From Candidatus Nomurabacteria bacterium (GTDB lineage Bacteria; Patescibacteriota; Dojkabacteria; SC72; JAHDCA01), in NCBI GenBank assembly GCA_020632395.1, contig JACKFQ010000002.1, positions 83,662 to 147,661 on the forward strand: a DNA stretch of 64,000 nucleotides, read 5' to 3'. This document shows positions 3,441-56,747 of this stretch, piece by piece. The first letter of the stretch is position 1. The number at the start of each line of letters is the position of its first letter. Position numbers and translations under genes: made by a program. The notes under the pieces were generated by a model. That model worked only from the letters and a program-made list of their open reading frames with translations. It was not told where the DNA came from and did no database searches.

Positions 3441-3604
3441 AATAGTAGGAGTAAAGAATTAAAATTTATAAATCAATCGTTTTCGGAACGAAGTGGAGAA
3501 AACACATTATTATCCCCCTCTTTTATTTTAGAAAAAATCAAATTTATTCCCTTTTTAGAAAGCCTATTTTCATTATTCATCTTAGAAAAATATTTTTTGA
3601 ATTT

Positions 3605-3638
3605 CACATAACGTATCCGAATATGAGAAGTTTTTTGC
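3605..3638. repeat. Cassette-junction block 1, copy E (cacATAACGTATCCGaATATgaGAAGTTTTTTGC)
   Basis: Junction core. A possible partner arm CGGATAatcagtGTTATAC lies at 3785-3803, just before the stop codon of the upstream gene. Confidence 0.6.
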
Positions 3639-3813
3639 CGGATTTCCCAGTATTTATGTACAGTTTAGCACATTCGTTCGACATTTGAATATGCTTTAAT
3701 TGATCGCCATTCGTAGGCAAAAAATTTGGATGGAATGAAAAAGACAAGTCCTTAAATTATTCAAAAGTGTCTTTTTCATGGAACCGGATAATCAGTGTTA
3801 TACGAGAGTTGAA

Positions 3814-5590: not shown

Positions 5591-6403
5591 ATGAAAAAAG
5601 AAATTACAGCAACTGTACGAGAATTAAAAATTCGCAATTACAGTTCTAAAACAATAAAAAGCTACACTAGTGGAATTCAAAAATACTTTCGGTTCAAGAA
5701 AAATAATTTCCAACAGCTAGATATCCACAATATACAAAACTTTTTACTCTCCTGTTCAGATAAAGGACTGTCTGCTAAGACAAGAGATCTATATTTGAAT
5801 TCAATTAAATTCTATTACCACAACGTCATTAAAACTTCAAAAAAGGTAGACATCAAATCTGCAAAACAAAATAAAAGTCTCCCTGTTATATTGAATCGCA
5901 AGGAAATCACAAAGTTGAGTGAAGTCATAAATAACCCCAAACACAAATTAATCATCTTGCTAGCATATGGAGCAGGATTAAGAGTTAGCGAAGTCGTCAA
6001 CTTAAAGGTCAAGGACGTAGATATTGATAATCTCACACTCCATATTAAGAAAGCCAAGGGGAAAAAGGATAGAATTACTATTATCCCAGAAAAAATTAAG
6101 GATGATCTGAAATTGATAATTAATTCAAGAGATCAAAACGAATATGTTTTTACAAGTGAACGAGGAGGAAATCTTACAACTCGTACTGCACAAAAGATTT
6201 TTACTAATGCTCTGAAAAAAGCAGGAATTAAGAAGGAGACGACATTTCATTCACTACGCCATAGCTTTGCAACTCACTTACTAGAAAACGGAGTTGATAT
6301 CAGATATGTTCAAGAATTACTTGGTCATCAAAATATTAGAACCACACAAAGATATACTCAAGTTACAAATCCGAAACTAAAAAACATTAAAAGTCCCCTC
6401 TGA
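5591..6403 (+). CDS. Tyrosine site-specific recombinase (XerC/XerD/phage-integrase family, 270 aa)
   Basis: Box I LRVSEV, box II HSLRHSFAT, catalytic Tyr in LGHQNIRTTQRYTQV. About 91 residues separate the box I Arg from the box II His, matching the Xer spacing, so no IntI-type insertion. Confidence 0.9.
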   Translation: MKKEITATVRELKIRNYSSKTIKSYTSGIQKYFRFKKNNFQQLDIHNIQNFLLSCSDKGLSAKTRDLYLNSIKFYYHNVIKTSKKVDIKSAKQNKSLPVILNRKEITKLSEVINNPKHKLIILLAYGAGLRVSEVVNLKVKDVDIDNLTLHIKKAKGKKDRITIIPEKIKDDLKLIINSRDQNEYVFTSERGGNLTTRTAQKIFTNALKKAGIKKETTFHSLRHSFATHLLENGVDIRYVQELLGHQNIRTTQRYTQVTNPKLKNIKSPL

Positions 6404-6711: not shown

Positions 6712-6785
6712 TCGGGGAGACAGGACTTGAACCTGCGACCTCTGCAACCCGAATGCAGCGTTCTAGCCATCTGAACTACTCCCCG
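6712..6785 (-). tRNA. tRNA-Pro, anticodon CGG
   Basis: Manual cloverleaf: acceptor CGGGGAG/CTCCCCG, D-stem GTTC/GAAC, anticodon arm CTGCA-TTCGGGT-TGCAG, T-arm GCAGG-TTCAAGT-CCTGT, discriminator A. Length 74 nt with no encoded CCA. Confidence 0.85.
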
Positions 6786-7297: not shown

Positions 7298-8368
7298 CTA
7301 ACTATAAGTTAGCTGGGTAGACAACTGCTTCACCATCTCCACTACAACTGCAGGAGCCACTATACTATATGATTCTACACCATTGTCATCGATAAAAGTC
7401 CACTTCGTATCCTTCCGTACTACCTTACCATCTACTACCTCATAAGATGCACGAGGTGTTAATTCGTAATCATCAAGTATATCAGCTGCGATCTCCACCG
7501 GAACAGAATTTCTCACAAAGATCTTTGGAACGCCATGCAGGTCAAAGATCTTTCGGATCAACTCATCGTCCATCTCTATCCTTTCCCGGATAGTTTCTAT
7601 GCCAAGAGAATCCCCCTCTTTCTCAACCATTCGCTCAGAGCTACATTCAGGGTTATCACAAATCAGGTAAAACTCATCCTTATCAGGGTCATAGCCAGCT
7701 TCCTTTGTGGGGAAAGCCCACAGATTTCTTGATGTATGACATTTGGGGCAGATCCTCCTGTATTTGATGCGTGTATCAATTACTGATTCGGGAACATCCA
7801 GTAGCATGAAAAGATCAGGGTCATCGCGATAATTGATCAGCTCTCTAAAATACAGTGAGTATGTCACCTGATCCATATTTCTAGGAAACCCATCAATGAA
7901 CAGATTTCTCCTACCGGCCTTTTCGATCTCGCGTTTAACGAGAGCGAGAATGAACTCGGTAGGTAGAAGATGTGCGGTAGAGCGATTCATAAAGGCCTCT
8001 ATTGCATCATTTATGGATATAAAACCTCTATAATTAGCTTTCAGATACTCTTCCAGAGCTTGCCTCTCTACTGGATCGTTCTTGATCTCATCAGCAGCCC
8101 TTACGATATCACCTACAGAGAGGTGTTTGATCATATCAGAGCCAAAGATCTCAGCTAAGAGCTTAGTGAAAGTTCCTTTACCTGCTTGTTTCTTTCCAAG
8201 AATGTAGACTATGAACGTATTATCTCTCATATAATCTTTCAGATCGGCAATCTCTTTACCGATCTTATCTTGAAAATATACTTGTCTTTCTGCCGGATCT
8301 GACAGATCATAACTATCACGACCTGATCTAGTCTTTGTGTTTGGCATAGGAAAATCTAACCCCTTCAT
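7298..8368 (-). CDS. Atypical adenylate-kinase-family protein with N- and C-terminal extensions and a zinc lid
   Basis: P-loop GKKQAGKGT, HLSVGDIVRAA, FIDGFPRN, and a zinc lid CPKCH ... CDNPEC. At 356 aa it is longer than the operon adk at 229 aa. Confidence 0.55.
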   Translation of the reverse strand: MKGLDFPMPNTKTRSGRDSYDLSDPAERQVYFQDKIGKEIADLKDYMRDNTFIVYILGKKQAGKGTFTKLLAEIFGSDMIKHLSVGDIVRAADEIKNDPVERQALEEYLKANYRGFISINDAIEAFMNRSTAHLLPTEFILALVKREIEKAGRRNLFIDGFPRNMDQVTYSLYFRELINYRDDPDLFMLLDVPESVIDTRIKYRRICPKCHTSRNLWAFPTKEAGYDPDKDEFYLICDNPECSSERMVEKEGDSLGIETIRERIEMDDELIRKIFDLHGVPKIFVRNSVPVEIAADILDDYELTPRASYEVVDGKVVRKDTKWTFIDDNGVESYSIVAPAVVVEMVKQLSTQLTYS

Positions 8369-12533: not shown

Positions 12534-15500
12534 ATGGTGTCCAAAAGTAAACAGAAAAAACGATCAAAAAACAAACAGTTCGAACTAAGGATGATACTTT
12601 TGGGGATTGTATCACTCACTCTGTTTCTAGTTTCCTTACTCATATATCTCTATAAAAGTGAGTCGATAATTGATAAATACAACATCATTGCAAGTGATTT
12701 CTCTGACAGTTCCTTCTCAATATCCTTCAGCACATTACAACCTAAGTATTTTCAAGCAGTCCTTTTAACCGAAGGAGAGGGGATCTCAAAACTGATATCT
12801 TCAAAAGCTACATCAGAGACTGAAGATATCAGGATCATCGAAAGAGTTTCTGATACTTTCAAACCCGGATATTATACCCATTATTACACATTCAAAAAAA
12901 TAGATCCTAATGAGAGCTATCGGGTCGCATTAAAGGACTCTACGGGGAGATTATGGAAGACTGATAAAGTTATCTTCCCAGAGGATTGGGAGGAGAGACA
13001 TAAGGTTCAGAAAGGTGACTCTGATCCATTGCCACTTTCAGGTTCTGTATCCTATGAAGGTGAATTTGTTCAAGGTGCATTGGTTTATGCAACATATAAT
13101 GGCATTACGATCTCAACGATCACAGCTGAAGAAGGTAAGTTCGTTTTAGAAGCTGCAAAATTTGGTTTACACGGATCTGACTTTGAAGACACACTGTCAA
13201 TACCTATAAACGTAGACCTATCATATCTAGGTGGCTACGACACCTCACTCACATACACCACAGAAGAACTTAGTAGTAGGACAGAAAAAGATCTAGGACT
13301 CATCTGGAGTACAAGAAGTATGGACTGGGGATCAGATATCATGCCGAAGAAAAAAAGTGAAAATCTTCTTGTCTCAGAGGTCTATGCCTGCTCTGCCGGA
13401 CAAACAAGGATCTGTCGCTCTGATACGAGTCGTGGGAGAGCTTGTTTACCAGGTAGTACCTGTGCATGGGAGGTCGATGAAGAAGGTTACCCTATCATCT
13501 GTTCATGCACATCACAAAGCTCAGGTTCCTCTGGTACTGCTGGAAATTCGACATCAACATCAGCTCCTGACATGTCTAACGCCGGATGGGAGAATGGTGT
13601 ACCGGAGGTTGGAGGGAGTACACCTCTTGATAGTCAGCTATGTGAATATAAATGTTCGGTAGCATGCTCGTCAGAGCACTCTGATGGAAATTGGTATGGT
13701 CAATGTGGTAACCCCGACAAAAGCGATGCAGGTATAGACACTTGCACTTGTATAAAGCTCGAGGGAGAGATGAGTAGCTATACAACACCAGCATATGACC
13801 CTAATCAGTTCGGTTCTGGGCAAGGAGGTTTCAATTGCCCAGCTGGTCAAGATATCTATGTGTCAAAGCCCGGGGTGATTTTTTGTGTACCTGCAGATGC
13901 ACCTAAGGTAGGTTACAAGGTCGACCCATCTTTAGTACAGATATTCACAGCGATCAAAGAGGCGATCGAGTCTGTCGGGGTCAAGGCTGGACTGATCACG
14001 GGAGGTTTTGGAGGAGGAGGAGGATCATACACAACTGACAAAAGTGGAAGACCCGTCATAAGGTTAGATTGGAATGAGCCGAATGTTGCATTAACAGCTG
14101 CTCATGAAGCGATGCACCAGGCTGGTGATCAGGCAGCCTCTTGTTATAGGAGTTTACCCGTGATACATAAAGAATTTTGTGCAGATTACTGTTCCTTGAG
14201 CACACCCTTAGAGATTGGTTATGCATTTAAGTATAAAGGATCCTATAGACTTCCAATGGAGATCGCTTCAGAAGAGTGGTATGGAGGTGAGACAGATCTG
14301 GATGCGATAAGAAATAGTCAACGATATAAGAATGACTGCCTAGATCCTGACGGTATGTGCCGAGGAGGAATATGCGACATTGTGAATAAGGTGAATATAA
14401 CAGATGTTGTAGGGAGACGTTACGCACAAACCCATAATGAATACAGTGACGGTGTGAGGGGTTTGGAATATGTGGGGTCTGGAATAAAGAGGAATTGGAA
14501 TCTACCAGATGATGATACTGTAGGAAGCGATGATCCTGCGATCTCTGAAACAGATACTTTCGATCCTGATCGTGATGAACCTGCATCAAATGAAGCTGTT
14601 TCTAATACAGACACCCCGGTTTGTACCTATGAAGAGGTGGGAGAGATCATTTATGAATTTAAGAATGCATACTATTACGAGATACTCAGTAGTATGCCAC
14701 CAGGTACAGAAGTCGATACAGAGGACCTGTTAGACTGGTTGTTAGAAAAGATCACAGATTACTATGGTTATGATCAGAACAAAGCGCAGTGCATAATTGA
14801 TCATCTTGACCAGTACCCAAATCTACTGCATTTTGATTCGTTACTTGTTTGGGATGACACAAAAGATGCTTATATAGTGACCACAAACAGTATGGGTTTT
14901 GCTGATTTTGCAGGATTGATAGAGAATGGATTTGATTTGCTTGATCCTTCAGATCTAGACGAGCAAACAAGTTATTCCTTGCCCGCTATACCGAGAGTAG
15001 ATACCTCTGGACTTTATGAGATCTATTCAGCTTTTCCAATCGATTACGATTCCGAGACAGGATCATTTTTGATCAGTTACGATCCGGATGTAGAAACTCA
15101 ATCGGAAAGTCTGTTGCAGAAAGCTTATGCAAGCGAACCGACTGTTCATCAGATCGACCCTTCCAATGCAAAGATGTTTCTATTTACGGATACAAATGAG
15201 AATCAAAAATACGATCCAGAGGGAGAGCAAATCGAGAAATTTGCAGGTATACCTATCATAATAAAACGGGCGCCCGAACAAACCCAACATAGCTATCAAT
15301 TGAACAAGGGTTTGAACATGATAGCGTTTCCTTTCGAAGCTGAAAGTTTTACAGCAAAATCACTATTAGATAAAATAAACACACAAGGTGGAGATGCAAC
15401 AGAGATATCCACGATACGAGATGGTACCTGGCAGGTTTATAAGAAATCCAAATTTGTAGATTACACATATAAGGACTTCCCTATTGAGATCGGAAAAGGA

Positions 15501-15794
15501 TATTTCGTATTTACTGAACGGGATTCTACTCTACATCTGTGGGGCAATGAAGTTGACTTTACATATGAGATCTTCTCTGGATATGGGAGTGTGGGTTTCT
15601 CGGATACTCTGATCGAACAGTATAAGACCGCATATGGATTACTCCTCGCTGATAGTCAGATATATGAGATCACAAAATATAAGGATGGAAAATTCTATTC
15701 CGTTATCAGATCCGATGGTGACATATTTGGGTATGATTATGACCTCTCAAAATATGAAGGGTATTTCATTAGAAAATTACGATCTTCAAACTGA
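12534..15794 (+). CDS. Giant secreted or membrane-anchored Cys-rich surface protein (1086 aa)
   Basis: N-terminal TM helix LRMILLGIVSLTLFLVSLLIYLY, Cys-rich blocks, a Gly run and an acidic C-terminal half. No recognisable catalytic motif. Confidence 0.6.
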   Translation: MVSKSKQKKRSKNKQFELRMILLGIVSLTLFLVSLLIYLYKSESIIDKYNIIASDFSDSSFSISFSTLQPKYFQAVLLTEGEGISKLISSKATSETEDIRIIERVSDTFKPGYYTHYYTFKKIDPNESYRVALKDSTGRLWKTDKVIFPEDWEERHKVQKGDSDPLPLSGSVSYEGEFVQGALVYATYNGITISTITAEEGKFVLEAAKFGLHGSDFEDTLSIPINVDLSYLGGYDTSLTYTTEELSSRTEKDLGLIWSTRSMDWGSDIMPKKKSENLLVSEVYACSAGQTRICRSDTSRGRACLPGSTCAWEVDEEGYPIICSCTSQSSGSSGTAGNSTSTSAPDMSNAGWENGVPEVGGSTPLDSQLCEYKCSVACSSEHSDGNWYGQCGNPDKSDAGIDTCTCIKLEGEMSSYTTPAYDPNQFGSGQGGFNCPAGQDIYVSKPGVIFCVPADAPKVGYKVDPSLVQIFTAIKEAIESVGVKAGLITGGFGGGGGSYTTDKSGRPVIRLDWNEPNVALTAAHEAMHQAGDQAASCYRSLPVIHKEFCADYCSLSTPLEIGYAFKYKGSYRLPMEIASEEWYGGETDLDAIRNSQRYKNDCLDPDGMCRGGICDIVNKVNITDVVGRRYAQTHNEYSDGVRGLEYVGSGIKRNWNLPDDDTVGSDDPAISETDTFDPDRDEPASNEAVSNTDTPVCTYEEVGEIIYEFKNAYYYEILSSMPPGTEVDTEDLLDWLLEKITDYYGYDQNKAQCIIDHLDQYPNLLHFDSLLVWDDTKDAYIVTTNSMGFADFAGLIENGFDLLDPSDLDEQTSYSLPAIPRVDTSGLYEIYSAFPIDYDSETGSFLISYDPDVETQSESLLQKAYASEPTVHQIDPSNAKMFLFTDTNENQKYDPEGEQIEKFAGIPIIIKRAPEQTQHSYQLNKGLNMIAFPFEAESFTAKSLLDKINTQGGDATEISTIRDGTWQVYKKSKFVDYTYKDFPIEIGKGYFVFTERDSTLHLWGNEVDFTYEIFSGYGSVGFSDTLIEQYKTAYGLLLADSQIYEITKYKDGKFYSVIRSDGDIFGYDYDLSKYEGYFIRKLRSSN

Positions 15795-15822: not shown

Positions 15823-17499
15823 CTACAGATCAACCAGAGAGTTGTATGTCACATTAGTAAGATTTGGTGTGCATCCACTATTCAGAAATAAACCTGTTGT
15901 GGTACCGAAGAAATCAGTATTACTGATCGTTGGATTGCATGTAACATTTGTTATATAGCCACCGTACGTCGTCCCTACCCCTGTTGCTGTAAAATCAGAA
16001 CCCGATATTGAGGGGGAAGATGTTTCGACATATAAAGCATAAGAGGTCGGAGACGAGTCGATATTCTCAATATTTACAGATGTATTTGTGACTGATACTG
16101 GGGTCTTGTTTATTCTCACACCATATACCGTTCCATCTGATGATTTATTTATATTTATAGTTGAATCTGTAATTGATGAGGAGTTTATGATCCCATAAAA
16201 TCCATACGTCGTAGTTCCACTCCCAGTTACTGACAAATTAGCAACTACATTATCTATCAACATAGTATTTCCAGATGATACCGGATAGAACAATCCTACT
16301 GATTTGGTCGCAGAAGTGTAATTTATCACACTATCATAGATCCGGGTCTGTGCTGCCGAATTCGTATATATGATCTTATCAATAGTATTATTCGAAGTAG
16401 CATTATTTGTAATTGTGATATCTGAATCATACATACTGAAATTCGAAGCCCAGAAGGTATTCACAATACCAACATCGTCTCTTGTGCCAGAGCCACTTTT
16501 TACTTCAAGAGCAATATTCATATTATAAAATCTACCTCCTCCTGCATTATGAGTTATCGCATATAATCCATCTCCTGCAGGAGGTTGCTTAGCGTTTACG
16601 GTTACATTATTAGCTATCATAAAGCTACCTGTCCTAGTCAAAAGTGGGTATATAGGTCCAGTATTTGTATCGATCTCGATATTCACATTCTTTACATAAC
16701 AAGGATTTGCAGCACGACGAGAATATGCATCGATTGGTGCCCACCAGGATATGTTTCCCGACCGTTTTATCGTTAGATCACGTATACTTGAGGAGTTACT
16801 CATATATGCATTATTTAACAATACGGTCTTTCCGACACCAGATCCTCTAACTTCGACATATTCCTTTATATCGATACTTTCATTATATGTGCCAGGCATA
16901 ACAAAGATAGTGTAACTCTTGGTTGCTGAGCTATCAGTGATCGAATTCATTGCAGAAGTGATTGTAGTATAGGTTTGTCCTGATCCGACAACAATAATAT
17001 CTTCATCATTCACAGTGATAGGAGTTTGATCAGTTGGGATGAAGATCCCATCGATCATTGCAGTTCGTTGGTTAGAACCTTTTACCTTCACCTCATAACC
17101 AGTCCCTAAGCTATCATCCTCAACATCTGGGGATATTGGAATATCGACTACATAATCAGGGATCAAGTCGTCTAAACTGATCATGCCTCTGGATTCACAT
17201 TCGGATCTTGGCACACCACTCTTACAAACTTCTTTGTATATTGAGCTAACCCCCTCAGGATAACCGCTATTATCGATCAGATACTGGTCTATCGCACTAT
17301 ACAGAGCATTTAATTCATTCTTAGTCTCTGAGACCTTTGCGGACTCGTACATCTTTGTTGGATTTATTGCAATAGCAACAACAGCACCCAATAATGCTAT
17401 CAAACCGACAACGACCAAGATCTCGATAAAAGTAAATGCTGGATATGTTTTCGAATGCTTTAAAAAATATATATTATTCATATAATCTTGTTGTCTCAC
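15823..17499 (-). CDS. Type IV pilin-like protein with a large Ser/Thr/Asn-rich C-terminal domain (558 aa)
   Basis: Prepilin signature PA|FTFIEILVVVGLIALLGAVVAIAI with Glu at +5. The long C-terminal region is rich in NxT/S sites. Confidence 0.7.
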   Translation of the reverse strand: MRQQDYMNNIYFLKHSKTYPAFTFIEILVVVGLIALLGAVVAIAINPTKMYESAKVSETKNELNALYSAIDQYLIDNSGYPEGVSSIYKEVCKSGVPRSECESRGMISLDDLIPDYVVDIPISPDVEDDSLGTGYEVKVKGSNQRTAMIDGIFIPTDQTPITVNDEDIIVVGSGQTYTTITSAMNSITDSSATKSYTIFVMPGTYNESIDIKEYVEVRGSGVGKTVLLNNAYMSNSSSIRDLTIKRSGNISWWAPIDAYSRRAANPCYVKNVNIEIDTNTGPIYPLLTRTGSFMIANNVTVNAKQPPAGDGLYAITHNAGGGRFYNMNIALEVKSGSGTRDDVGIVNTFWASNFSMYDSDITITNNATSNNTIDKIIYTNSAAQTRIYDSVINYTSATKSVGLFYPVSSGNTMLIDNVVANLSVTGSGTTTYGFYGIINSSSITDSTININKSSDGTVYGVRINKTPVSVTNTSVNIENIDSSPTSYALYVETSSPSISGSDFTATGVGTTYGGYITNVTCNPTISNTDFFGTTTGLFLNSGCTPNLTNVTYNSLVDL

Positions 17500-19901: not shown

Positions 19902-22103
19902 ATGAACACTGAGCAATTCGTTCCAGGTGAATATGGTGTATCTATTTCCGACAGGGTTCTCGGTCGGTTAATTGAGGTATTTGGATCTGCGGCTTTAACT
20001 GGGTCTCAAGATTCTCAATGGCATATTTACCCTAATTCACACGAAGCATTAGATGGTATATCACATACGATAACATATGAGCAGATACAGGCATTCTCAC
20101 CTGCCATGCTTCTCGTGCTGTTACTGATAATAGAAGAATCTGATGAAGAGTCTTATCTTGCTGCTATGGAAAATCAAGCATATAGGCCAACATATACCAG
20201 AACAGCTGAGACTGATGAAGAATTGAATCCTGATTTGGATGAAGTACCGCAGAACCATGCCAGAGGTCTCATTCAAGATCTTTTAGCTTTGAAACTACGT
20301 GACACTGACATGGTCCCTGGATTTGCAAATGATGTTGCGAGATATCTCTCAACAGACCCTGCTTTATCAGAAGCATCCATTAGAAGATCATTCTGGGAAA
20401 TACAGGCTGCTTTCTATCAGATTCTGGACGATGATCGGGAACTATTTGAGAAAAACCTTAGATGTTTCTTGGATCGATCATATGTGATCGATCCCAATTG
20501 GGGTCTAGTCGTTGATACCTTCCTCAACTCAAAACTCGAATTTGAAAAGATCCCACCTGAAGCATTCGAAGCTAAAGAAATAACTATTTTTTCAAGAAAC
20601 CAGGATATTTTTGATTATGTTATCGATTACCTACTCCATCATATAAGGACCCAAAGTCTAACCAGAAAACAAGTAGACAATATAGTATCCTTACTACTAC
20701 ACAATTACATGGCTGGTAATGATGTGATGATTGCTTTTGATATGCTCATACGTCGGAGAGGAGCAAATTTTGATATCCTTGTTTTCGCTAAAAAGAATCC
20801 AACAGTCTCAAAAAAGATACTAGAACACATATTTCATTTACTTTTAACAGAACCAGACACAAATTATCCTGTTGATGTTCAAAAGACCTTGGTAGAGGGA
20901 TGGATACTTCTAGTTAGATTACCTGTTTTAAAAATATGTCAAATACCTTTTGCTAAAGAAATCTTAGAAAAATATGCGTCTAGTCTAAAGATACCCCCTA
21001 GTGTAGCAGTCGGATTGCTTACTAAACGGCAAGATACTCAACAGGTGTTAGTCTCTTCAGACTCTGAGGAAGAATGCCAAGAATCTAGGAGAATACCAGC
21101 AACACATTATCTGCCTACTGAAATTACTACCAGATTAATCTCACATTTTCAGTGGGAAGAGCTTTCAACTGTAGGAATAGATCTTGATAAACTCTCGCTC
21201 GTGCAAGTTTTCCAATTAATTTTCTGGTTTTGGACAAATGGATATGATTTCGACATATATTATGGTATTCCCGCCCAAAACCCAGATCGATCTATCCCAA
21301 TTTTTGTAAAAAACCTGTCGAAACATCTGGAGCATCTATTGAAAAGATCAAATGCTGGGGAGCTTGATTCATTTTGTCAGGTTCTTGCAGAAAAGTTGAA
21401 CCATGGTGAACCTACAGCAGGTATCAATCCATACATATACGCAGACACCGTCTCAAGATTTCTTGTAGAGTACATAGAACCAGAGCTGAGACTTACGTTG
21501 TTGAAATCATTACAATGTGTAGATTACCCAACCGCCATAGTTTTAGCCCACAACCTTAACATGGAACAAGAGCTATACCAAAACCCTCCTGACCAGAAAA
21601 TCCCTGTAATAAACGCGATCCGTTCTGATGCAGAGTTCTCACTCAACGTTCTAAGGACGATTATCGACAATAACCATGAGTATCCAAACACTCCATCTCA
21701 TGTCTACTTGTTACTGCTACGAAAATCACTTTTTCCCCGAGGAAACAAACTTTTTACAATGACGGATAAGACACTCTTACGGAAAATATTGGGAAAAGTA
21801 GAACGTTCTGATCGAAACCAAATTCTCGATGAGCTAATAGAAAGAATATTTTGGACATATTCCCAACAAACCCAAGACCTGTTAAGGCTTTCGGCTTTCC
21901 TCGAGCTAGCTACGCCATCAGAGGTATATGCTTTTTATAGAAAACTTTATTTCATAGGTCAGGAGGATCCTAGAATGAGAGAACATGTTCTTAAACATAC
22001 GAAATTATTGATGGGTACGTTACCTATAGCAAATAAGATTGCTATGGCGTCTAAGTCGCTCCCGCGACCTTACGGTCGGGGTTTCGGCTCTTCATTCAAA
22101 TGA
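19902..22103 (+). CDS. Large hypothetical protein (733 aa), probably cytoplasmic and helical
   Basis: Long ORF with coding-like composition and no motif I recognise. Confidence 0.45.
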   Translation: MNTEQFVPGEYGVSISDRVLGRLIEVFGSAALTGSQDSQWHIYPNSHEALDGISHTITYEQIQAFSPAMLLVLLLIIEESDEESYLAAMENQAYRPTYTRTAETDEELNPDLDEVPQNHARGLIQDLLALKLRDTDMVPGFANDVARYLSTDPALSEASIRRSFWEIQAAFYQILDDDRELFEKNLRCFLDRSYVIDPNWGLVVDTFLNSKLEFEKIPPEAFEAKEITIFSRNQDIFDYVIDYLLHHIRTQSLTRKQVDNIVSLLLHNYMAGNDVMIAFDMLIRRRGANFDILVFAKKNPTVSKKILEHIFHLLLTEPDTNYPVDVQKTLVEGWILLVRLPVLKICQIPFAKEILEKYASSLKIPPSVAVGLLTKRQDTQQVLVSSDSEEECQESRRIPATHYLPTEITTRLISHFQWEELSTVGIDLDKLSLVQVFQLIFWFWTNGYDFDIYYGIPAQNPDRSIPIFVKNLSKHLEHLLKRSNAGELDSFCQVLAEKLNHGEPTAGINPYIYADTVSRFLVEYIEPELRLTLLKSLQCVDYPTAIVLAHNLNMEQELYQNPPDQKIPVINAIRSDAEFSLNVLRTIIDNNHEYPNTPSHVYLLLLRKSLFPRGNKLFTMTDKTLLRKILGKVERSDRNQILDELIERIFWTYSQQTQDLLRLSAFLELATPSEVYAFYRKLYFIGQEDPRMREHVLKHTKLLMGTLPIANKIAMASKSLPRPYGRGFGSSFK

Positions 22104-25852: not shown

Positions 25853-27232
25853 ATGAATATCAAAATCAAACGAATATTACCTAAAAGCTTTGACCTGAAA
25901 CGGTATTCCGTGATCTTAGGCTTATCACTTATCACTACGATAATGCTCGCATCAGCACTTATAGCTATGCCATATACAGAAAAGATCTCCTCCAAACTTC
26001 AATACGATCTAAACCTAAAAGAGAACAGCTACAAAGCACGAAGGTACACAGTAGAATTAGATCTGACAAATGAAGATCCTGATAAAGTGGAACAGAAGAT
26101 CGTACGCACCAAAGATATCATAATGAAACGATTACTGGATTACGGTGTTGAGAGCGTTTCGATCACTGAAGCAAATGATACAGATCCATCAGACGACATT
26201 ACAGCTGAAGTATCAAATGAAGGCATACCCGTCGAAACAACCGGATTGCAGGATGACACATCAGGCGATAAAGAACAGAAGCGATATCTTGATATACAGG
26301 TAGATACATCAAAAGATATCGACATAATAAGTCAGATCATCAGATCTAGATCTTTTATACGGATAGTCACCCCAAAGGAAGATGTTGATTTTAACAATCC
26401 CGATGACCAGATAGCCCAGTATTTACCTGATAATTATAATGATACTAAGTTCACAAGATATTCCTTTCGAAATATTGCCATAAAAGAACTACCTACCTCG
26501 ACAGGAGGTACTGCATATTTTGGTATATATAAAGTCAATCCAACAGACAAAGGGGACTTCCTTGATCTACTGGACAAATATGCAGGACAGCGGATCGGTA
26601 TAGAGATAGATGGTTTCGTATCGCCCACTTTAGTACCCTCACAATTTGACCGAGGTGCTCAAACAAATAGAAGTGTCAACCCCGAGTTTGCTCCTGTAGT
26701 TGGTCAGAACAGATCTGAAGCTCAGATAGCAGACATCCTTCTCAATAGTGGTGTTATACCATTGCAATATAGTGTGACCGACGAAGTAGATCTTGCATCT
26801 TCCGTTATAAAACCCGACTACCCTACTGCATTATTTGCTATCTTGGCTGGTGTGATCGCAACTATCGGATTTATTGGATTTAGAAATAGAAAAGAGCAGG
26901 AGGAAACAGTTATCTTCTTCCTTTCTGCGATAGGTACTCTAAGCGTTTGGATCACCTATCTTAAATTCTTCTATCTGCCAGTAGATCTAGATGTAATGAT
27001 CCTTACAGGATTTATATTGATCTATCTTGTAAAGCTATTTACATATAGACGTAAGGGAACTTTCGAATTGGAAATTGTCGTATTAGCGACATCAATAATG
27101 TTCGTATGGCTAACAGGAGGTTATACAGACCTACTAGCCAAGGCTGTGCTAGAAGTGGCGTTATTTGCGCTCATTATAGTCAATATGATGGGCTACTACA
27201 TCAATAATATCAGGAGATACCTACTGAAATGA
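25853..27232 (+). CDS. Integral membrane protein (N-terminal TM, large soluble domain, C-terminal multi-TM)
   Basis: Hydrophobicity pattern only. Size is 459 aa. Confidence 0.5.
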   Translation: MNIKIKRILPKSFDLKRYSVILGLSLITTIMLASALIAMPYTEKISSKLQYDLNLKENSYKARRYTVELDLTNEDPDKVEQKIVRTKDIIMKRLLDYGVESVSITEANDTDPSDDITAEVSNEGIPVETTGLQDDTSGDKEQKRYLDIQVDTSKDIDIISQIIRSRSFIRIVTPKEDVDFNNPDDQIAQYLPDNYNDTKFTRYSFRNIAIKELPTSTGGTAYFGIYKVNPTDKGDFLDLLDKYAGQRIGIEIDGFVSPTLVPSQFDRGAQTNRSVNPEFAPVVGQNRSEAQIADILLNSGVIPLQYSVTDEVDLASSVIKPDYPTALFAILAGVIATIGFIGFRNRKEQEETVIFFLSAIGTLSVWITYLKFFYLPVDLDVMILTGFILIYLVKLFTYRRKGTFELEIVVLATSIMFVWLTGGYTDLLAKAVLEVALFALIIVNMMGYYINNIRRYLLK

Positions 27233-33331: not shown

Positions 33332-34666
33332 TCACTTCAGTTTCGGGAGTCGATCAAACACTGCAAAATCTCCGTATTCTTTCAGTAATTTGTTGGCATC
33401 GTCTTCATCTCCCTGTTCCATTATTCTCAATGTGAGGTGTGATAATGCCTCGAGATCTGATGCTAGCTGAGTGTAGTCGATTGCCATCTTCCCATCTTCG
33501 ACTTTGAATGCTCCAGATCGGAATCCGATATTGAACATAACAGCGAATCCTTTTGCATAATCCAATAGAGCCCCACTCTCTTGATAATGATTACACATAT
33601 CTGTCGCAAATATAGCAAAGGCCATTAACAGATCTTGATACTGTTCTAGCGTACTAAATCCATTCAGTATGTGGTATTTTGCACTATCTAAACCTACTGC
33701 GTGTGCATTCAACTCACGAATGAAATCGTAATTCGATTTGAGTCGGCTCTCTGTACTAGAGAATTTTACCGTACCTTCAGCGATCTCATGTAATGCAACC
33801 CAATTGAACATTGCTGCACGAAGTTTCTCCACATGCTCTTCGTCACAGTTGTCACAGAAGAATTTCATCAGTGGAACATGTCTCTTATCAAATTTCATAC
33901 TCATAGATGTTGTGAAAACAACAACTTTTGTACCGTATTTCTTAACAAGCTCGGGTTCATTTGGTAGGTTAGCACTAGAAACTAAATGTGTTGATTGCCT
34001 ACCTGCAAACATCAATACATCATCTATACGTACTTGTATCTGATTTTTCTCTAATTTTGAACCAAAAGATGTTTCTGGCTGAGGGAGTCTGATGTTCTTC
34101 ATCACATCTATCATATTCAGGATATCTTGGGTGGCTGTTTGATTCAACACACGCAGATTGAACTGGAATGTTTTCTTTCTTCCTAATAGATTATCCTCAT
34201 AGGTTTCAAAAGGTCCTGCTGAGAACTCGATCTTGGTTTGAGGGTTTTCTAAAAATGCAATAAGTGAAGCTTGATAATCTCCTGCCGAACAAGCCTTAAT
34301 GACCTTATCAATATAGATCTTCAGATCAGGATCATCACTCGCATCCTTAGCTTGTGTAAGTAGAGCAGAGAACTCTTTGAGATCATCTCCGTACTCATCT
34401 ATATAATCAACTGCTTCTAACTTCCCATTGACCCGTCTAACCAATGTAGTCCCAGAGAGTAAAGCCGGATCCTTCTCTGCGGCAGCTAAAATCTCTTCCT
34501 TGGTCGCATCCTCGGGATATACGGTCAAACGTCCTGTGTCTTGATCTACTTGGCGTTGCCAGACCTTATGGATAACATTGCCGGCTTCTAAAAGTATATC
34601 AACAACTCTTCTTTCGCTCTCAGAAAGCATGCTTTTATCATACTCGAACAATCTAACGTTCTGCAT
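33332..34666 (-). CDS. Hypothetical protein (444 aa)
   Basis: Long ORF with coding-like composition and no motif I can assign. Confidence 0.45.
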   Translation of the reverse strand: MQNVRLFEYDKSMLSESERRVVDILLEAGNVIHKVWQRQVDQDTGRLTVYPEDATKEEILAAAEKDPALLSGTTLVRRVNGKLEAVDYIDEYGDDLKEFSALLTQAKDASDDPDLKIYIDKVIKACSAGDYQASLIAFLENPQTKIEFSAGPFETYEDNLLGRKKTFQFNLRVLNQTATQDILNMIDVMKNIRLPQPETSFGSKLEKNQIQVRIDDVLMFAGRQSTHLVSSANLPNEPELVKKYGTKVVVFTTSMSMKFDKRHVPLMKFFCDNCDEEHVEKLRAAMFNWVALHEIAEGTVKFSSTESRLKSNYDFIRELNAHAVGLDSAKYHILNGFSTLEQYQDLLMAFAIFATDMCNHYQESGALLDYAKGFAVMFNIGFRSGAFKVEDGKMAIDYTQLASDLEALSHLTLRIMEQGDEDDANKLLKEYGDFAVFDRLPKLK

Positions 34667-34684: not shown

Positions 34685-35149
34685 TTATTTTATTTCCAAT
34701 ACTCGATACTCCTTTTCTACTATTCCTGTTGATACAACGACTGTATCTCCTACTCGTTTTCCGATCAAAGCACGACCCACTGGTGATTCATCAGATATCT
34801 TCTTATTGATTGGATCGGCTTCCAAGGAATTTACTATCGTATACTCTTCCTCATATTGTCCAAAACCTACCCTTACTACTGATCCTATCTCAACTTGACT
34901 AGAGTTTGGGTTATCATGAACAATATCGTAGCTTGACAGTATCTCCTTTAACTCAAGAATCCTCTTTTCTAGATATCTTTGATCCTCAAATACATCTGAA
35001 AATGTAACGTCATCCTGATCATTTGGGAGACTTCGTAGCCAATCTAAACTATCTGCTATCTTCTCTCTGCCCTTGGTTTGCAGGTCTTTTAATTCGTTCT
35101 CAAGTTGCTCGACTTTTTGGGCAGATAACTGATACTTATTTTTCTTCAT
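34685..35149 (-). CDS. greA: Transcription elongation factor GreA
   Basis: N-terminal coiled coil plus a C-terminal FKBP-like domain (SPVGRALIGKRVGDTVVV). Confidence 0.8.
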   Translation of the reverse strand: MKKNKYQLSAQKVEQLENELKDLQTKGREKIADSLDWLRSLPNDQDDVTFSDVFEDQRYLEKRILELKEILSSYDIVHDNPNSSQVEIGSVVRVGFGQYEEEYTIVNSLEADPINKKISDESPVGRALIGKRVGDTVVVSTGIVEKEYRVLEIK

Positions 35150-39018: not shown

Positions 39019-39480
39019 ATGCCTGAATCAACACATACGATGACCCAGAAAGGCTTAGACGAATTGAAGGTAGAACTTGATCACCGTATCAATGTCAAAA
39101 GAGAAGAATTAAGGTCTATCGTAGAAGACTCCATTCAAAAAGGAGATATCAGTGAGAATGAAGCCTATGAGCTCGCTCTTGAGGAGACAGAGTCTAATGA
39201 GATGCGGATCGCAGAGCTAGAGAGAGTTATTGGAAATGCTGTTATAGCTACAGATACAGGTATTCACACCGTATCAATAGGTAATACTGTATCAGTAAGA
39301 AGCAGTTCTGGAGATTTGGAAATCCAGATCGTGGGTCAAGCAGAGGCAAATCCACTAGATAATAAGATCAGTGATGCAACACCATTGGGGCAATCATTGA
39401 TCGGAAAGAAAAAGGGTGATAAGGTGACGATCAGCCTTCCAAAAGGTGATGTTGAATATGAGATACTGAATATCTCTTGA
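39019..39480 (+). CDS. GreA-family transcription elongation factor, second paralog
   Basis: Same two-domain architecture as greA (coiled coil; C-terminal SLIGKKKGDKVTI). Confidence 0.7.
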   Translation: MPESTHTMTQKGLDELKVELDHRINVKREELRSIVEDSIQKGDISENEAYELALEETESNEMRIAELERVIGNAVIATDTGIHTVSIGNTVSVRSSSGDLEIQIVGQAEANPLDNKISDATPLGQSLIGKKKGDKVTISLPKGDVEYEILNIS

Positions 39481-48823: not shown

Positions 48824-48837
48824 ACTTTTTTGAGTAG

Positions 48838-49315
48838 TGCAAGTATCCCATAAGCCGGATCCTGTTTATGTGGTCATCTATCTAAGCGGTTCTGACCTTG
48901 CTTCAGGTGGGGGTTACCACGCACTTGCTTATTGCTAAGCGAGCCGGTGGTCTCTTACACCACCATTTCACCCTTACCCCCGCTAACTTATAGTGTCGAG
49001 TGTATCCAATGCTTGTAGTTCGATTTACATTACGCTCTTCTCCCTGACTTGAGACCCTATTTCTCAGTTCGTTCCGGGTCAGCTTTTGGGAGTTTCTGCG
49101 ACAAACTATGCGTTTCTATTTGCGATCTAAAGTGCGATTTTACCTGCAATTCGGCTCTATAGGTTAGCGGGGGCGGTATAACTTTCTGTTGCCCTTTTCT
49201 CCGAAAGATCACTCCCTCCCAGCTCACACTGGCACCTACCCTTTAACGATGGGCCATCATGAAGTCCGGACTTTCCTCTAGGTTTGACCCTAGCGACCAC
49301 TTGAGATACTTGCCC
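48838..49315 (-). ncRNA. rnpB: RNase P RNA, bacterial type A
   Basis: Minus-strand sequence contains AGGAAAGUCCGGAC (P4 5' strand), GGUGCCAG, GCAACAGAAAG ... ACCGCC, GGUAAGGGUGAAAUGGUGGUGUAAGAGACCACC, ACAGGAUCCGGCUUAU (P4 3' strand), and a P1 pairing GCAAGUAUC/GAUACUUGC. P12 appears expanded. Confidence 0.8.
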
Positions 49316-49372
49316 TTGATTATATCATTGTCGAGAGATTTTATGCGATAGAGCAACTTTCAGACAGGAGGT

Positions 49373-49408
49373 GCGGATCTAAAGGCGGATCTAAAGGCGG
49401 ATCTAACG
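49373..49408. repeat. Tandem repeat, 3 copies of the 12-bp unit GCGGATCTAAAG
   Basis: Copies are directly visible; the last copy has one substitution. Located about 60 bp upstream of the rnpB 5' end. Confidence 0.6.
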
Positions 49409-49643: not shown

Positions 49644-51020
49644 ATGTATCATGAGATCCGAAGCATAATTCGTCATAGAGGAGAACTAACTGATGTAGCT
49701 ATTCAGTGTGGGATCTCTAGGGGGATCCCGATGATCAAGATGTACGGCTCAATTAGTCGAGAATACTCAAGATATCGGGAATTACTGCCCTATACCTTCG
49801 CACAGGTCGGAAGGAAGCTACCCCAGCGGAAGATCCATATCAATTATTCATCTGATAGCAGTGGTATACAGACCCGAGATCTTGATCTACCAACAGCACT
49901 ATCTATTTATTCAGCAATAAATGCATATGAACAGAGAGACCTGTATGCTATAGGTGAACTCTCCATGGACGGGAAGATCTCGCCTTCAGATGAAACAGGT
50001 GCATTACTTTACATTCTGGATAGCCGATCGGACTTGCGAAAAGCCTCAGTCTATGGAGCTAACCTGATCATCTCAGCAGAAACCTTATTTCCGAATGTAG
50101 AATATATTCAGACCCCAACTTTACTCCACTGTATACGGAATTTAGAAGGAGATATTGATGAATCGAACCAGCGCGGTCAGACAGTTCTGAAAAATTCGCC
50201 TAATTCGGCAATTGTGGAAAGTTCGGATCTGCCACACTTTCTGGCAATCGCATTGGGATTGAATTGTGTTGTGATCGATGAAGATAATTATGCAACCCTA
50301 CCATCAGCGACAGCGAGATCAGCTCATCAGAACGAGGGCGTGTACTCACTTGAGCTAAAAAGGCTCACCAAGGCTATCGGACGCTACCTAGAGCCGATAT
50401 GTTACGACGGAGCTATGATCAATGGTATTACTGGTATTACCCATTTACAGAACCTTCTAGAGCTTTCTAAGAGAACTGGTTCTGGCTGTGCACTATATCT
50501 CAATCTGACATTAACTGATATCAAAGATCAAAAGATACAAGAGCAAGTGATCAAGTTACTTTCTATCCGAACAGGTGTGATCGTGAGTATCCCAAGATGT
50601 CCGTGTGGATGTAGCAAGAGTTGCTCCTGTTCGACAACCGACAGATTAAAACACAAAACTTTCGTTAAAGGTCTTTATGAATCCGTGAGAATAGTTCTCA
50701 GGAATTCTGACATAGGGAGGATCACTCCTCCAAGTTGTTGGTTTGAGGGGGGTAAGAAGAGATTAATGTGGAAAAGTGGGGCCGAAGCACTTTATAGCAA
50801 CACAGAAAACTCAAATCTAAACATAATCAGTAGTGAAGGAGTAAAGAAAACAGCAAATCACAAGAATATACCTCCAGAATTGATCCTAGATACAACAGAT
50901 CACAAAGGACAAAGTACGTTTCTCAAGTACTTCTCTAAAGCAGATTATCTAGATGAGGAAATGAAAGCGACACTCAGAAGAGTGTCGCGAACAAGTCTAG
51001 AAAACATTGAGCTCTTTTAA
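49644..51020 (+). CDS. ComM/YifB (Mg-chelatase-like) family protein with a degenerate, P-loop-less AAA+ core
   Basis: N-terminal Lon-like domain aligns with YifB (ISRGIPMIKMYG ... RKIHINYS ... DLDLPTALSIY ... GELSMDGKI). The NPCPCG-like motif IPRCPCGCSKSC is present. No GPPGTGKT Walker A motif is identifiable. Confidence 0.55.
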   Translation: MYHEIRSIIRHRGELTDVAIQCGISRGIPMIKMYGSISREYSRYRELLPYTFAQVGRKLPQRKIHINYSSDSSGIQTRDLDLPTALSIYSAINAYEQRDLYAIGELSMDGKISPSDETGALLYILDSRSDLRKASVYGANLIISAETLFPNVEYIQTPTLLHCIRNLEGDIDESNQRGQTVLKNSPNSAIVESSDLPHFLAIALGLNCVVIDEDNYATLPSATARSAHQNEGVYSLELKRLTKAIGRYLEPICYDGAMINGITGITHLQNLLELSKRTGSGCALYLNLTLTDIKDQKIQEQVIKLLSIRTGVIVSIPRCPCGCSKSCSCSTTDRLKHKTFVKGLYESVRIVLRNSDIGRITPPSCWFEGGKKRLMWKSGAEALYSNTENSNLNIISSEGVKKTANHKNIPPELILDTTDHKGQSTFLKYFSKADYLDEEMKATLRRVSRTSLENIELF

Positions 51021-51880: not shown

Positions 51881-52444
51881 TTATATTCCGGATCGGCTTC
51901 TTGCTCGCTCTTTTCCAACAAATCTGTTCTTTAGATTCTTTGCTAGACTTTTCGCTTTATCACTCTCTCTTTCCTCTTTTGCTTCTCGTAATTCAACAGC
52001 ATCCTCATCTTGGACTGGAGGTTTTTTATCCTTCGTATCCTGTTTCAAAGGTGTCTTTTGAACAACACTCTTCTGAGTCTTTATATCCTTCTTGACCTTT
52101 GAAGAGAATCCTTGAAGGGATACCCTCGATACCTCAGCATTGTCTCCATCTCTAAATCCAACCTTAACGATCTTGACCTTTGGAGATGACTTGAGATATT
52201 CGACCATCTTGTTTGCTGAGCTATCATCACCTAATAGGGTCAAAAGTTCATATTTCCTTACCTTCTCTGCCTTTGAGTTCAGATCGTTCAAGTACGACTC
52301 TACATTAGCTTTTAAAACTTTTGCTTTTGGAGTAGTTGTCGTCACCTTACCATAGGTTAAGATAGATCTTACCTGATTCTTGATCAAAGATCTTCGATGC
52401 GACACCTTCCTACCTAATTTTCTTCTTCCTGCTAGCTTATACAT
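51881..52444 (-). CDS. rplQ: 50S ribosomal protein L17, with a C-terminal extension
   Basis: GRRKLGRKVSHRRSL core, plus about 70 extra basic/acidic residues. Confidence 0.85.
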   Translation of the reverse strand: MYKLAGRRKLGRKVSHRRSLIKNQVRSILTYGKVTTTTPKAKVLKANVESYLNDLNSKAEKVRKYELLTLLGDDSSANKMVEYLKSSPKVKIVKVGFRDGDNAEVSRVSLQGFSSKVKKDIKTQKSVVQKTPLKQDTKDKKPPVQDEDAVELREAKEERESDKAKSLAKNLKNRFVGKERARSRSGI

Positions 52445-55321: not shown

Positions 55322-56065
55322 TTACCATGATGTCAGAATTTTTGGCTTCTGATCAACAACAATTGTATGCTCGAAAAGTGCTGAGAGCATACCATCTTCC
55401 GTATAGCTTGTCCAGCCATCATCTATAGAAATAAAGATGTCTGGTAGACCCTGATTTACGATAGCCTCTATAGCTAAGGTTTGGCCTCGGTATAACTCCT
55501 GTCCTTTACCTTTTCGCCCATAGCCAGGCACATATGGTTCCTCGTGTAGATCGTACCCTATTCCATGTCCAACCATTTCTTTTACAACTGAATATCCATT
55601 CTTCTCAACAATTTCCTGCATAGCATGACCGATATCACCGACATGATTTCCCGGCTTTGCATTAGCTATCCCTGCCAAGGTAGCATCTTTGACAACATTA
55701 ACGAATTTCTTTATCTCATCTGAAACTTCACCGATAATTACGGTATACGATGTGTCACTGTAGACATCCTTATACTTGATACCAAAATCTACACTGAGAA
55801 CATCCCCATCCTCAAGGACATAATCATCAGGTATTCCGTGAACCACTACATCATTAACACCAGTACATAACGTAGCAGGGAAACCTTCATATCCTTTGAA
55901 TGCTGGGATCACTTTATTATCAATACATAACTGCTCTGCATACTGATCTAGTTCGATCAAAGATACTCCTACGGAAACTTTGGAAAGTACATTTCTGAGG
56001 ATCTCAGAACAGATCACTCCTGCTTCCTCCATCTTCACGATCTTTTCTGGGTCATACTTACGCAT
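55322..56065 (-). CDS. map: Type I methionine aminopeptidase
   Basis: Metal-binding D/D/H/E/E pita-bread motifs. Confidence 0.9.
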   Translation of the reverse strand: MRKYDPEKIVKMEEAGVICSEILRNVLSKVSVGVSLIELDQYAEQLCIDNKVIPAFKGYEGFPATLCTGVNDVVVHGIPDDYVLEDGDVLSVDFGIKYKDVYSDTSYTVIIGEVSDEIKKFVNVVKDATLAGIANAKPGNHVGDIGHAMQEIVEKNGYSVVKEMVGHGIGYDLHEEPYVPGYGRKGKGQELYRGQTLAIEAIVNQGLPDIFISIDDGWTSYTEDGMLSALFEHTIVVDQKPKILTSW

Positions 56066-56747
56066 ATTTTTGCAACTCCTTCAGTAAATTTTCATGAATT
56101 ACCTCAATCGAAGGTGTTGCGTCGATCTCAAGCAGGATACCTCTGCTACGATAGGTATCTAATATTGGTTTTAGATCGTCATTATACCATTCCAAGCGTT
56201 TTGCTATAGCATCAGGATTGTCATCCTCTCGTTTGACAAGAGGTGTTCCATCATTATCACAAAAACCTTCTTTTTTCTCTTTTTTGTATAGTGAATGGTA
56301 TGTAGTACCACATTTTTCACAGTAGGTTCGCAGAGACATCCTCTCGATAGCTGCTGATTCTGTAAGTTTGAAATGTACAAAAAGATCTAAGGTTCGGTCG
56401 AACTTCTGAACAAGTTTATCAAAAAGATCGATCTGTGTTTCTTTTCGGACAGGTGATACAAAGAACCATGGTTTTTTGGGGTCAAGCCTAGGTAACCACT
56501 CCTCAAAGATCAAATATACATCTTCATCAGAAGCTAGCTTGCCAACCCTGGTATTCTCATAGGCGCTAAGTGCTCTGGGATGACCTTCTTTTTTTAATAT
56601 CTCCATTAAGCTACTAAACCCTATCCTTTCATAATCGATCGTTCTTTCAAGGAGATCCAATTGCGTATCTTTCCCTGAACCTGATGGCCCATGAAAAATT
56701 GCAGTTCTGAGTGTTTTTTTAGAGGTATCTATCATAACTTCGTACAA
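56058..56747 (-). CDS. adk: Adenylate kinase (canonical operon copy)
   Basis: GPSGSGKDTQ P-loop, LID with CEKCG. Confidence 0.9.
   Translation of the reverse strand: MYEVMIDTSKKTLRTAIFHGPSGSGKDTQLDLLERTIDYERIGFSSLMEILKKEGHPRALSAYENTRVGKLASDEDVYLIFEEWLPRLDPKKPWFFVSPVRKETQIDLFDKLVQKFDRTLDLFVHFKLTESAAIERMSLRTYCEKCGTTYHSLYKKEKKEGFCDNDGTPLVKREDDNPDAIAKRLEWYNDDLKPILDTYRSRGILLEIDATPSIEVIHENLLKELQKYA

Follow-up and report, generated by a model that had tools for sequence, protein, structure and literature searches.

Can a helicase lose its motor and still be worth keeping? The question is raised by a gene in a 64,000-nucleotide stretch of DNA from Candidatus Nomurabacteria bacterium (positions 83,662 to 147,661 of contig JACKFQ010000002.1, assembly GCA_020632395.1), which we call the window. 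At 49644..51020 on its forward strand, the window encodes a protein that resembles ComM/YifB. ComM is the hexameric AAA+ branch-migration helicase that serves as the transformation-specific motor of Gram-negative bacteria. An earlier note, made from the letters of this DNA, proposed that the gene is a pseudo-ATPase derivative of ComM/YifB rather than a decayed pseudogene. We reached the same view. We think it probable that the gene is the positional ortholog of comM, that its motor was inactivated, and that selection has since kept it as a non-motor protein.

Descent from ComM and loss of the motor residues

The gene and its parts are as follows (aa, amino acids; ORF, open reading frame; AF2, AlphaFold2):

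49644..51020 (+), ATPase-dead ComM ortholog; complete ORF, 458 aa plus stop
49644..50159 (+), Lon-protease-like ring domain, non-catalytic, the conserved module; residues 1-172, from PF13541, AF2 and Foldseek
50160..50588 (+), linker and degenerate AAA+ core remnant, fast-evolving; residues 173-315, aligned by hhalign to ComM columns ~211-340
50304..50327 (+), Walker A equivalent, SATARSAH; residues 221-228, with Lys replaced by A227 and Thr by H228
50499..50519 (+), equivalent of the Walker B strand (hhhhDE), LNLTLTD; residues 286-292, with the acidic pair replaced by T291/D292
50589..50630 (+), four-Cys zinc knuckle, retained; residues 316-329, IPRCPCGCSKSCSC, with C319, C321, C327 and C329
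50631..51017 (+), C-terminal tail, a remnant of the AAA+ C-terminal / Mg_chelatase_C lid; residues 330-458, with E439 at the Arg-finger position
50747..50752 (+), G6 homopolymer; codons 368-370, with a one-base-shorter variant in one public contig

The earlier note had described the ORF as uninterrupted, and it is: ATG 49644 is the earliest start codon past the upstream stop, and the 458-aa frame that it opens is unbroken.

On descent from ComM/YifB, profile comparison is decisive. Across our hhalign comparisons with canonical ComM, the probability was 99.9-100, with E = 2e-32 to 1e-39. A profile of the three known members of the family gave a probability of 99.9 (E = 2.3e-32) against 25 canonical ComMs. 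When the protein was aligned globally to a profile with L. pneumophila ComM at its head (PDB 8rxd, with its sequence reconstructed from an alignment), the match ran from residue 15 to residue 458 over 408 columns (E = 9.7e-40). Residues 175-458 by themselves matched ComM columns 211-387 (probability 93.9, E = 1.5e-7). When we searched profiles of the PDB, the top match was again 8rxd, in two co-linear stretches that correspond to the Lon domain and the zinc-finger region. These alignments indicate descent from ComM, with co-linearity over the full length of the gene.

The gene also lies where a related lineage has its comM. The order fmt, rnpB on the reverse strand, the gene, and then convergent rpsI-rplM-rplQ-rpoA is common to the window and to three other loci (L012, L016, and L018). 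L012 and L016 have a degenerate gene in the identical slot (encoding P0002 and P0004), and L018, from the Dojkabacteria metagenome-assembled genome (MAG) GCA_020632375.1, has a bona fide ComM there. This 465-aa protein, P0036, contains GPPGCGKT and VLLIDE, has matches to PF13541, PF01078 (124.6 bits), and PF13335, and aligns to 8rxd over its full length (E = 1.4e-36). A neighbor-joining tree of S9, L13, L17, RpoA, and S4 (943 columns, 200 bootstraps) has the topology (((window, L012) 200/200, L016) 195/200, L018) 200/200, with other Dojkabacteria-like loci outside. So the degenerate clade is monophyletic, and its three lineages are ~0.30-0.34 apart in ribosomal-protein distance. It is most parsimonious to suppose that the comM of the ancestor of these three genomes was inactivated once and then long retained. 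Because the sister lineage has an intact ComM at this locus, the gene is the comM ortholog and not an extra copy. It is neither a paralogue, nor a frameshifted gene, nor a decayed pseudogene: three divergent genomes have it in this slot, and its degenerate part is free of in-frame stops and normal in codon usage.

Pseudo-ATPase subunits are common in AAA+ rings. In Mg-chelatase, for example, ChlD/BchD, which occur beside ChlI/BchI, are dead AAA+ subunits that have lost their motifs and are kept as a structural element. Might the window protein likewise be an inactive partner in a hetero-hexamer whose active subunit is an intact ComM paralogue from another part of the genome? The Lon-like ring domain, which mediates hexamer formation, is the best-conserved part of the protein, and our search for a second comM covers the 64-kb window only. 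Nevertheless, we consider this quite improbable. The gene occupies the locus of the sister lineage's intact ComM, hence it is an ortholog, and the window contains no second ChlI/ComM-like ORF (nor RadA, nor any other Lon-domain protein). Also, P0036 was found only in GCA_020632375.1 and GCA_020429345.1 and not in GCA_020429305.1, the one degenerate-gene assembly for which we had an accession. ChlD and BchD differ in another way: they are paralogous partners of an active subunit, whereas in the window the inactive form has taken the place of the active ortholog at the comM locus itself, with no known active partner.

The family is rare. A word-indexed search of 5.8 billion proteins found the same species only (P0001), and with two- and three-member profiles as queries it added just P0002 and a few canonical ComMs. 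Exhaustive phmmer against 1.84 billion cluster representatives gave 83 matches at E <= 1e-3. Only three were below 1e-10: P0004 (421 aa), P0002 (391 aa), and a fragment of the window protein itself. In the others, the N-terminal domain matched ordinary ComM proteins of ~500 aa. The intact P0036 also came from this search. A scan of genome contigs with the window protein as the query had no match, and the syntenic loci were obtained from a scan of genome contigs seeded with the neighboring rpsI. A scan of JGI metagenomes with the family profile also had no match. P0002 and P0004 have PF13541 as their sole Pfam match, are without Walker A and Walker B, and keep the CxC...CxC motif. We found no description, in the searchable literature, of an ATPase-dead ComM/YifB or of ComM in Dojkabacteria. 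We also considered whether these proteins might be BrxL or a Lon-related protein of anti-phage defense, and we rejected this identity: PADLOC had no match for the window protein and only marginal Lon-domain matches (14-17 bits) for P0002 and P0004, and the genomic setting is a housekeeping one.

How does the window protein compare with ComM/YifB itself (TIGR00368; L. pneumophila structures 8rxd, 8rxs, and 8rxt; PMC11612176)? It is alike in its Lon-like domain, in its CxCG...CxC knuckle at the same place, and in its length (458 aa versus ~500). It differs in the motor. In L. pneumophila ComM, Walker A, the sensor-3 residue R316, and the Arg finger R463 have roles that involve ATP, and K64 contacts DNA (PMC11612176). 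In the global alignment K64 is kept, as K63, whereas R316 corresponds to I303 and R463 to E439. Similarly, R381 corresponds to S347, and the Walker A sequence G218-APGSG-K224-T225 aligns to S221-ATARS-A227-H228 (K224 to A227 and T225 to H228). Past Walker B, ~16-20 residues (LRQPLE...R, which includes the sensor-3 Arg) are deleted or replaced, and the lid is not recognizable by its Pfam model (PF13335). So every residue that L. pneumophila ComM uses to bind or hydrolyze ATP is substituted, and we predict no ATP-dependent activity.

The absence of a recognizable Walker A, which the earlier note had claimed, holds under every approach that we used. Regular expressions found neither GxxGxGK[ST] nor hhhhDE anywhere in the protein, and profile alignment to the ComM models found no P-loop and no functional Walker A at any alternative position. 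The note had placed the lost P-loop at DLPHFLAIALGLNCVVIDEDN (residues 195-215). The loss stands, and the placement has to be corrected: this segment aligns to DV.GQ..AKRAL.IAAAGGHN, which is the helix and strand that immediately precede the P-loop, and the equivalent of the P-loop is the adjoining S221-H228. There is no P-loop under either placement. Pfam gives no match to PF01078 or PF13335, TIGR00368 scores 22.9 bits against a cutoff of 362.4 (over residues 17-113 only), and NF007365 scores 12.6 against a cutoff of 530, with coverage of the N-terminal domain only. Because the ATPase motifs of ComM/YifB are missing and the family thresholds failed, we do not expect the protein to be an ATP-driven helicase. 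For the same reasons it should not be called ComM; "ATPase-dead ComM ortholog" is an apt description.

The closest intact ortholog is also informative. P0036 (MCA9375358.1 / MCB9790779.1, annotated as "ATP-binding protein") is like the window protein in its slot, in a 4-nucleotide (nt) overlap of stop codons with rpsI, in its four Cys, in its length class, and in lineage-specific features of the N-terminal domain, such as KIPQRKITVNFSS versus KLPQRKIHINYSS. Identity between the two is ~19% overall and ~29% in the N-terminal domain. Unlike the window protein, P0036 keeps GPPGCGKT, VLLIDE, LDRIDL, PF01078, and PF13335. P0002 retains a faint vestige of the P-loop (LGNCPASTGT, versus LGPPGCGKT), which suggests that the site decayed gradually within the family.

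Could the protein be a nucleoside triphosphatase (NTPase) with a non-canonical nucleotide site? Extreme divergence can hide motifs, and there is no positive evidence for such a site. Local hhalign, global hhalign, and MAFFT with the closest intact ortholog all put non-P-loop residues at Walker A, and the Walker A, Walker B, sensor, and finger positions vary even among the three members of the family (the equivalent of Walker B is conserved in neither P0002 nor P0004). A cryptic NTPase therefore seems very improbable to us.

An artefact of assembly or annotation, such as a frameshifted or chimeric comM, is refuted by eight independent contigs, the window included. Seven further public contigs, from different samples, are 99.1-99.8% identical to the window and have the same ORF; the sole one-base insertion, in one contig, is upstream of the gene; and two other genera share the architecture. 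Searching the 64-kb window with intact ComMs (tblastn) gave matches solely in the ORF's own frame and nowhere else, so we rejected a hidden reading frame or a frameshift relative to intact ComM. The earlier note had named a frameshift relative to an intact ortholog as grounds for refutation; in fact the start and end are equivalent to those of the 465-aa intact ortholog. The window protein is identical to MCB9803713.1 at NCBI (cluster member P0089), and MCB9789391.1 (on a 1.09-Mb contig) and MCA9376696.1 are variants with at least 98% identity. All public copies are annotated as "hypothetical protein," and their source MAGs are labeled Candidatus Nomurabacteria or Dojkabacteria.

Constraint on the gene and the possible role of its product

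The best-conserved part of the protein is the Lon-like domain. PF13541 (ChlI, the Lon-like domain of ComM/YifB) matches residues 21-117 (E = 6.7e-9, 36.1 bits versus a cutoff of 27). In the AF2 model, residues 1-170 have a predicted local distance difference test score (pLDDT) of mostly ~80-94, with dips to 63-78 in some blocks. The best Foldseek match of the model is the Lon domain of L. pneumophila ComM (8rxs_A, with a template modeling score of 0.72 on the target; also 8rxt and 8rxd), followed by Lon proteolytic domains, RadA, and BrxL. The earlier note was right about the nature of this domain and too short on its extent, which it gave as 130 aa: the confident part of the model reaches about residue 172. 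The invariant residues of the three-member family are concentrated in this domain, which contains the family motif G56-R-K-L-P60, and in the four Cys. Activity as a Lon protease (S16) was rejected, as the Ser-Lys dyad is absent: when profiles were aligned with the proteolytic domain of A. fulgidus Lon (1z0c), D79 and L122 of the window protein fell opposite the catalytic Ser and Lys, respectively, and neither position is conserved within the family. In ComM and RadA, the Lon-like domain forms a planar hexameric ring through which DNA passes (PMC11612176).

The second conserved element is the zinc knuckle. The earlier note had recognized a CPCG region, and indeed IPRCPCGCSKSC (residues 316-327) aligns to the zinc-finger segment of 8rxd. 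All four Cys of this putative zinc-binding element are invariant across the three degenerate members and P0036. In ComM, the zinc finger is a flexible appendage whose role is poorly understood, and it is unresolved in the cryo-electron microscopy structures (PMC11612176). Past the knuckle, only the last helix still aligns to a ComM motif (LRRVSRT to LKVSRTIADM, by global hhalign and MAFFT), and this stretch also encodes the likely terminator hairpin of the rpsI operon. The total lengths of the members are 391, 421, and 458 aa, with a variable tail.

Between genomes, identity is 32-37% in the N-terminal domain and ~20% in the remainder, including residues 173-315. Even so, the remainder has stayed open. 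From codon 144 to the end, there are no in-frame stop codons in any of the three genomes, where composition-matched shuffles (n = 500) lead us to expect ~19-21 (the minimum was 7-9), and the other five frames of this region have 10-33 stops. The codon-usage likelihood is -4.04 for codons 144 to the end versus -4.05 for the N-terminal domain and about -4.45 for the other frames.

Within the species, across the same seven contigs, there are no single-nucleotide polymorphisms in codons 1-143 and 20 in codons 144-458 (14 nonsynonymous and 6 synonymous). At the protein level, 13/13 polymorphic sites are past residue 143 (Fisher p = 0.012), and 4/13 are past residue 340. A comparison of P0103 with P0004 serves as a replicate from another lineage: with 3 changes in residues 1-143 and 11 elsewhere, it is in the same direction (p = 0.40 alone, p = 0.02 if pooled with the window cluster). 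Together, these patterns indicate that purifying selection is strong on the Lon-like domain, that the zinc knuckle and translation up to it are maintained, and that constraint is weak on the former ATPase core and the tail.

The polymorphic sites are also mosaic (window 50074-51005; contigs L001, L002, and L023-L027; proteins P0089-P0102). For example, residues 186 and 337 occur in all four combinations across P0089, P0090, P0091, and P0092. Such mosaics point to homologous recombination among strains, in an organism with a presumably dead ComM motor.

What might the protein do? We have high confidence that this is a selectively retained, ATPase-dead comM ortholog, and low confidence in any specific activity; its role is inferred. 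The protein probably has no capacity to translocate on DNA, and the Lon-like domain and the zinc knuckle would be what selection keeps. Because the family conserves the ring and the knuckle while all of the motor elements are gone, the most likely role would be that of a ring or scaffold which needs no ATP and which, during recombination or transformation, binds DNA or a partner. The former ATPase region would then be mainly a loosely constrained connector. If motor activity or branch migration is needed, another helicase such as RadA might supply it. In Gram-positive bacteria, RadA serves transformation as the branch-migration helicase, and by analogy it is the obvious candidate supplier of the missing activity. 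RadA/Sms also has a zinc finger, a motor domain, and a Lon-like ring domain of the same fold (Foldseek matches 5lkq and 8rxc), but its domain order is reversed, its motor is of the RecA type, and there is no sequence relationship beyond the Lon-like domain. Net charge, which we had considered as an indicator of DNA binding, proved uninformative and was rejected: P0036 is strongly basic (+13, +16) and the degenerate proteins are close to neutrality, but canonical ComMs range from -5 to +13.

Several observations count against our interpretation. The family evolves far faster than its neighbors: the gene is the fastest-evolving of the locus, with 22-26% identity between genomes versus 47-73% for Fmt, QueA, S9, L13, L17, TGT, RNase Y, and a CAP-domain protein. 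In codons 144-458, the ratio of nonsynonymous to synonymous polymorphism (pN/pS) is 0.68, which is near-neutral (p = 0.43 versus 1), and the counts of 14:6 exceed those of S9, L13, S4, and RpoA pooled (5:12, Fisher p = 0.022). One contig has a frameshift variant at the G6 run (P0099, ending in ...CWFEGVRRD) that stops after residue 373 and so is without the last 85 aa; the 84 aa left over appear as an ORF of their own, and P0003 is exactly residues 375-458. Much of the C-terminal two thirds may thus be dispensable. AF2 gives no confident fold for residues 174-315, so the model leaves undecided whether an AAA-like fold survives. (With three sequences the pLDDT was 30.8; with 37 sequences, including 33 ComM-family homologs of which four are Walker-A-less, only the N-terminal domain and a helix past the zinc knuckle were resolved, with pLDDT of 71-74 around residues 320-345 and below 50 for residues 174-315 and 346-408.) As for the predicted scaffold, mutating Walker A in ComM abolishes binding to DNA (PMC11612176), and DNA binding that needs no ATP therefore cannot be taken for granted. 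And in V. cholerae ComM, the surface that docks DprA is the lid domain (PMC12012524), which is the least conserved part of the window protein.

The rapid evolution, the near-neutral polymorphism, the truncating variant, the variable tail, and the low AF2 confidence for residues 174-315 are also what we would expect of a relic in slow decay, in which the function of ComM was lost in a reduced-genome lineage, the ORF is not yet broken, and at most the N-terminal domain is active. We think that this is unlikely, although it is the most serious of the alternatives. A relic should not have kept degenerate stretches of 250-316 codons free of stops in three lineages, with codon usage like that of the N-terminal domain. 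The four Cys, which lie 150-190 residues downstream of the conserved domain, would not be expected to be invariant, nor would the ORF be expected to fill all of the space before rpsI in each genome with the degenerate gene. On this evidence, together with the intact ComM at the sister locus, the earlier note's statement that the gene is not a decayed pseudogene seems sound, and we continue to favor a comM ortholog that is kept by selection as a non-motor protein.

The locus and other features of the window

The gene is among housekeeping genes, with queA (-), fmt (+), and RNase P RNA on one side and the convergent rpsI-rplM-rplQ-rpoA-rpsD on the other. Among species-representative genomes, the ribosomal proteins of the window are closest to those of Patescibacteria MAGs, Dojkabacteria among them. 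None of dprA, recA, or comEC was found among the 41 ORFs of the window that were scanned with Pfam. Two features adjoin the gene or overlap it:

48836-49312 (-), RNase P RNA, bacterial class A (rnpB); Rfam, 142.6 bits, between fmt and the ComM-like gene
50967..50988 (-), GC-rich hairpin and then a T run, likely the terminator of the rpsI operon; found by a terminator scan, inside the last codons of the ORF

The stop codons of the ORF and rpsI share 4 nt (51017-51020), and the geometry is identical for the intact ComM in L018. rnpB is 477 nt long in the window versus 318-347 nt at the equivalent position in L012, L016, and L018, so the window copy has one or more extra insertions. The 331-nt spacer between rnpB and the ORF contains a perfect 12-nt tandem repeat, GCGGATCTAAAG, in 2.8 copies (49373-49406). 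The related contig L026 differs there by three substitutions and one insertion (49370-49384). L018 has an extra 340-aa ORF without a Pfam match between rnpB and comM (2814-3836 of that contig, +), which is absent from the three degenerate-gene genomes. Across the stop overlap and further into the ribosomal genes, rplQ (51881-52444, -) encodes an L17 with a long Lys/Glu-rich C-terminal extension. Compared with L023, the window copy of this gene has 5 nonsynonymous and 4 synonymous differences, which are clustered in the extension.

Elsewhere in the window, we noticed several oddities. Two paralogues of the GreA/GreB family (34685-35149, -, and 39019-39480, +) lie within 4 kb, which is unusual in a reduced genome. 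Five long ORFs have no Pfam match at E <= 1e-5: 12534-15794 (+), 15823-17499 (-), and 19902-22103 (+), of 1086, 558, and 733 aa, and 25853-27232 (+) and 33332-34666 (-), of 459 and 444 aa. A 270-aa tyrosine recombinase of the Phage_integrase family (5591-6403, +) is ~300 nt from a tRNA gene (6712-6785, -), and it could be XerC/D-like or could mark an integrated element. Finally, a 356-aa ORF (7298-8368, -) has an ADK match that is stretched over residues 56-253, and it is far longer than a normal Adk. The ribosomal protein cluster also has an ORF where adk usually lies (56058-56747), so a second copy of adk is a possibility.

Motor loss in other lineages, and what it would mean

We also encountered other ComM-like proteins that have the Lon-like N-terminal domain without Walker A or Walker B, namely P0077 and the group P0024, P0064, and P0081. 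P0077 (GCA_016648615.1, on a 14-kb contig) has 444 aa, with AANKETAEN in place of the P-loop and CPCG...CTC kept. Its gene is directly upstream of dprA and overlaps it, and topA and codY follow, in a Firmicute-like setting. P0024 (L028, 6001-7461), P0064, and P0081 are ~470-500 aa, and the neighbors of P0024 are gap, pgk, tpi, and secG. P0077, P0064, and P0081 keep the CxCG...CxC knuckle; no such motif was found in P0024. These proteins differ from the window family in belonging to unrelated lineages, and so reflect independent losses, and in being far closer to canonical ComM: P0024 and P0064 still score ~70 bits on PF01078, unlike the window family.

That Walker-A-less relatives of ComM are found in unrelated lineages suggests that loss of the motor, with the ring domain kept, is recurrent. 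A bolder and more doubtful idea is that ComM has repeatedly and independently been turned into a "pseudo-helicase" that keeps an ATP-independent function of the Lon ring and zinc knuckle, for example as a ring or loader that associates with DNA or with DprA or RadA. Three such cases would be the Dojkabacteria-like clade, the Firmicute-like P0077, and the group of P0024, P0064, and P0081. If this is true, then the window gene is the extreme case within a functional class that has gone unrecognized, not an oddity of one lineage.

Patescibacteria depend on DNA uptake, and some of them, the Saccharibacteria, are naturally transformable (PMC10633639). Domain-based pipelines could score this gene as ComM-like from its N-terminal domain alone, and the competence potential of the clade would therefore be overestimated. 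More generally, an ortholog that has discarded the motor and kept the Lon-like ring and the zinc knuckle is a natural separation-of-function mutant, and it would indicate that the ring and knuckle have a selectable activity that is independent of ATP hydrolysis. The roles of these two elements in ComM and RadA are poorly understood, and this gene provides a concrete protein with which they may be tested.

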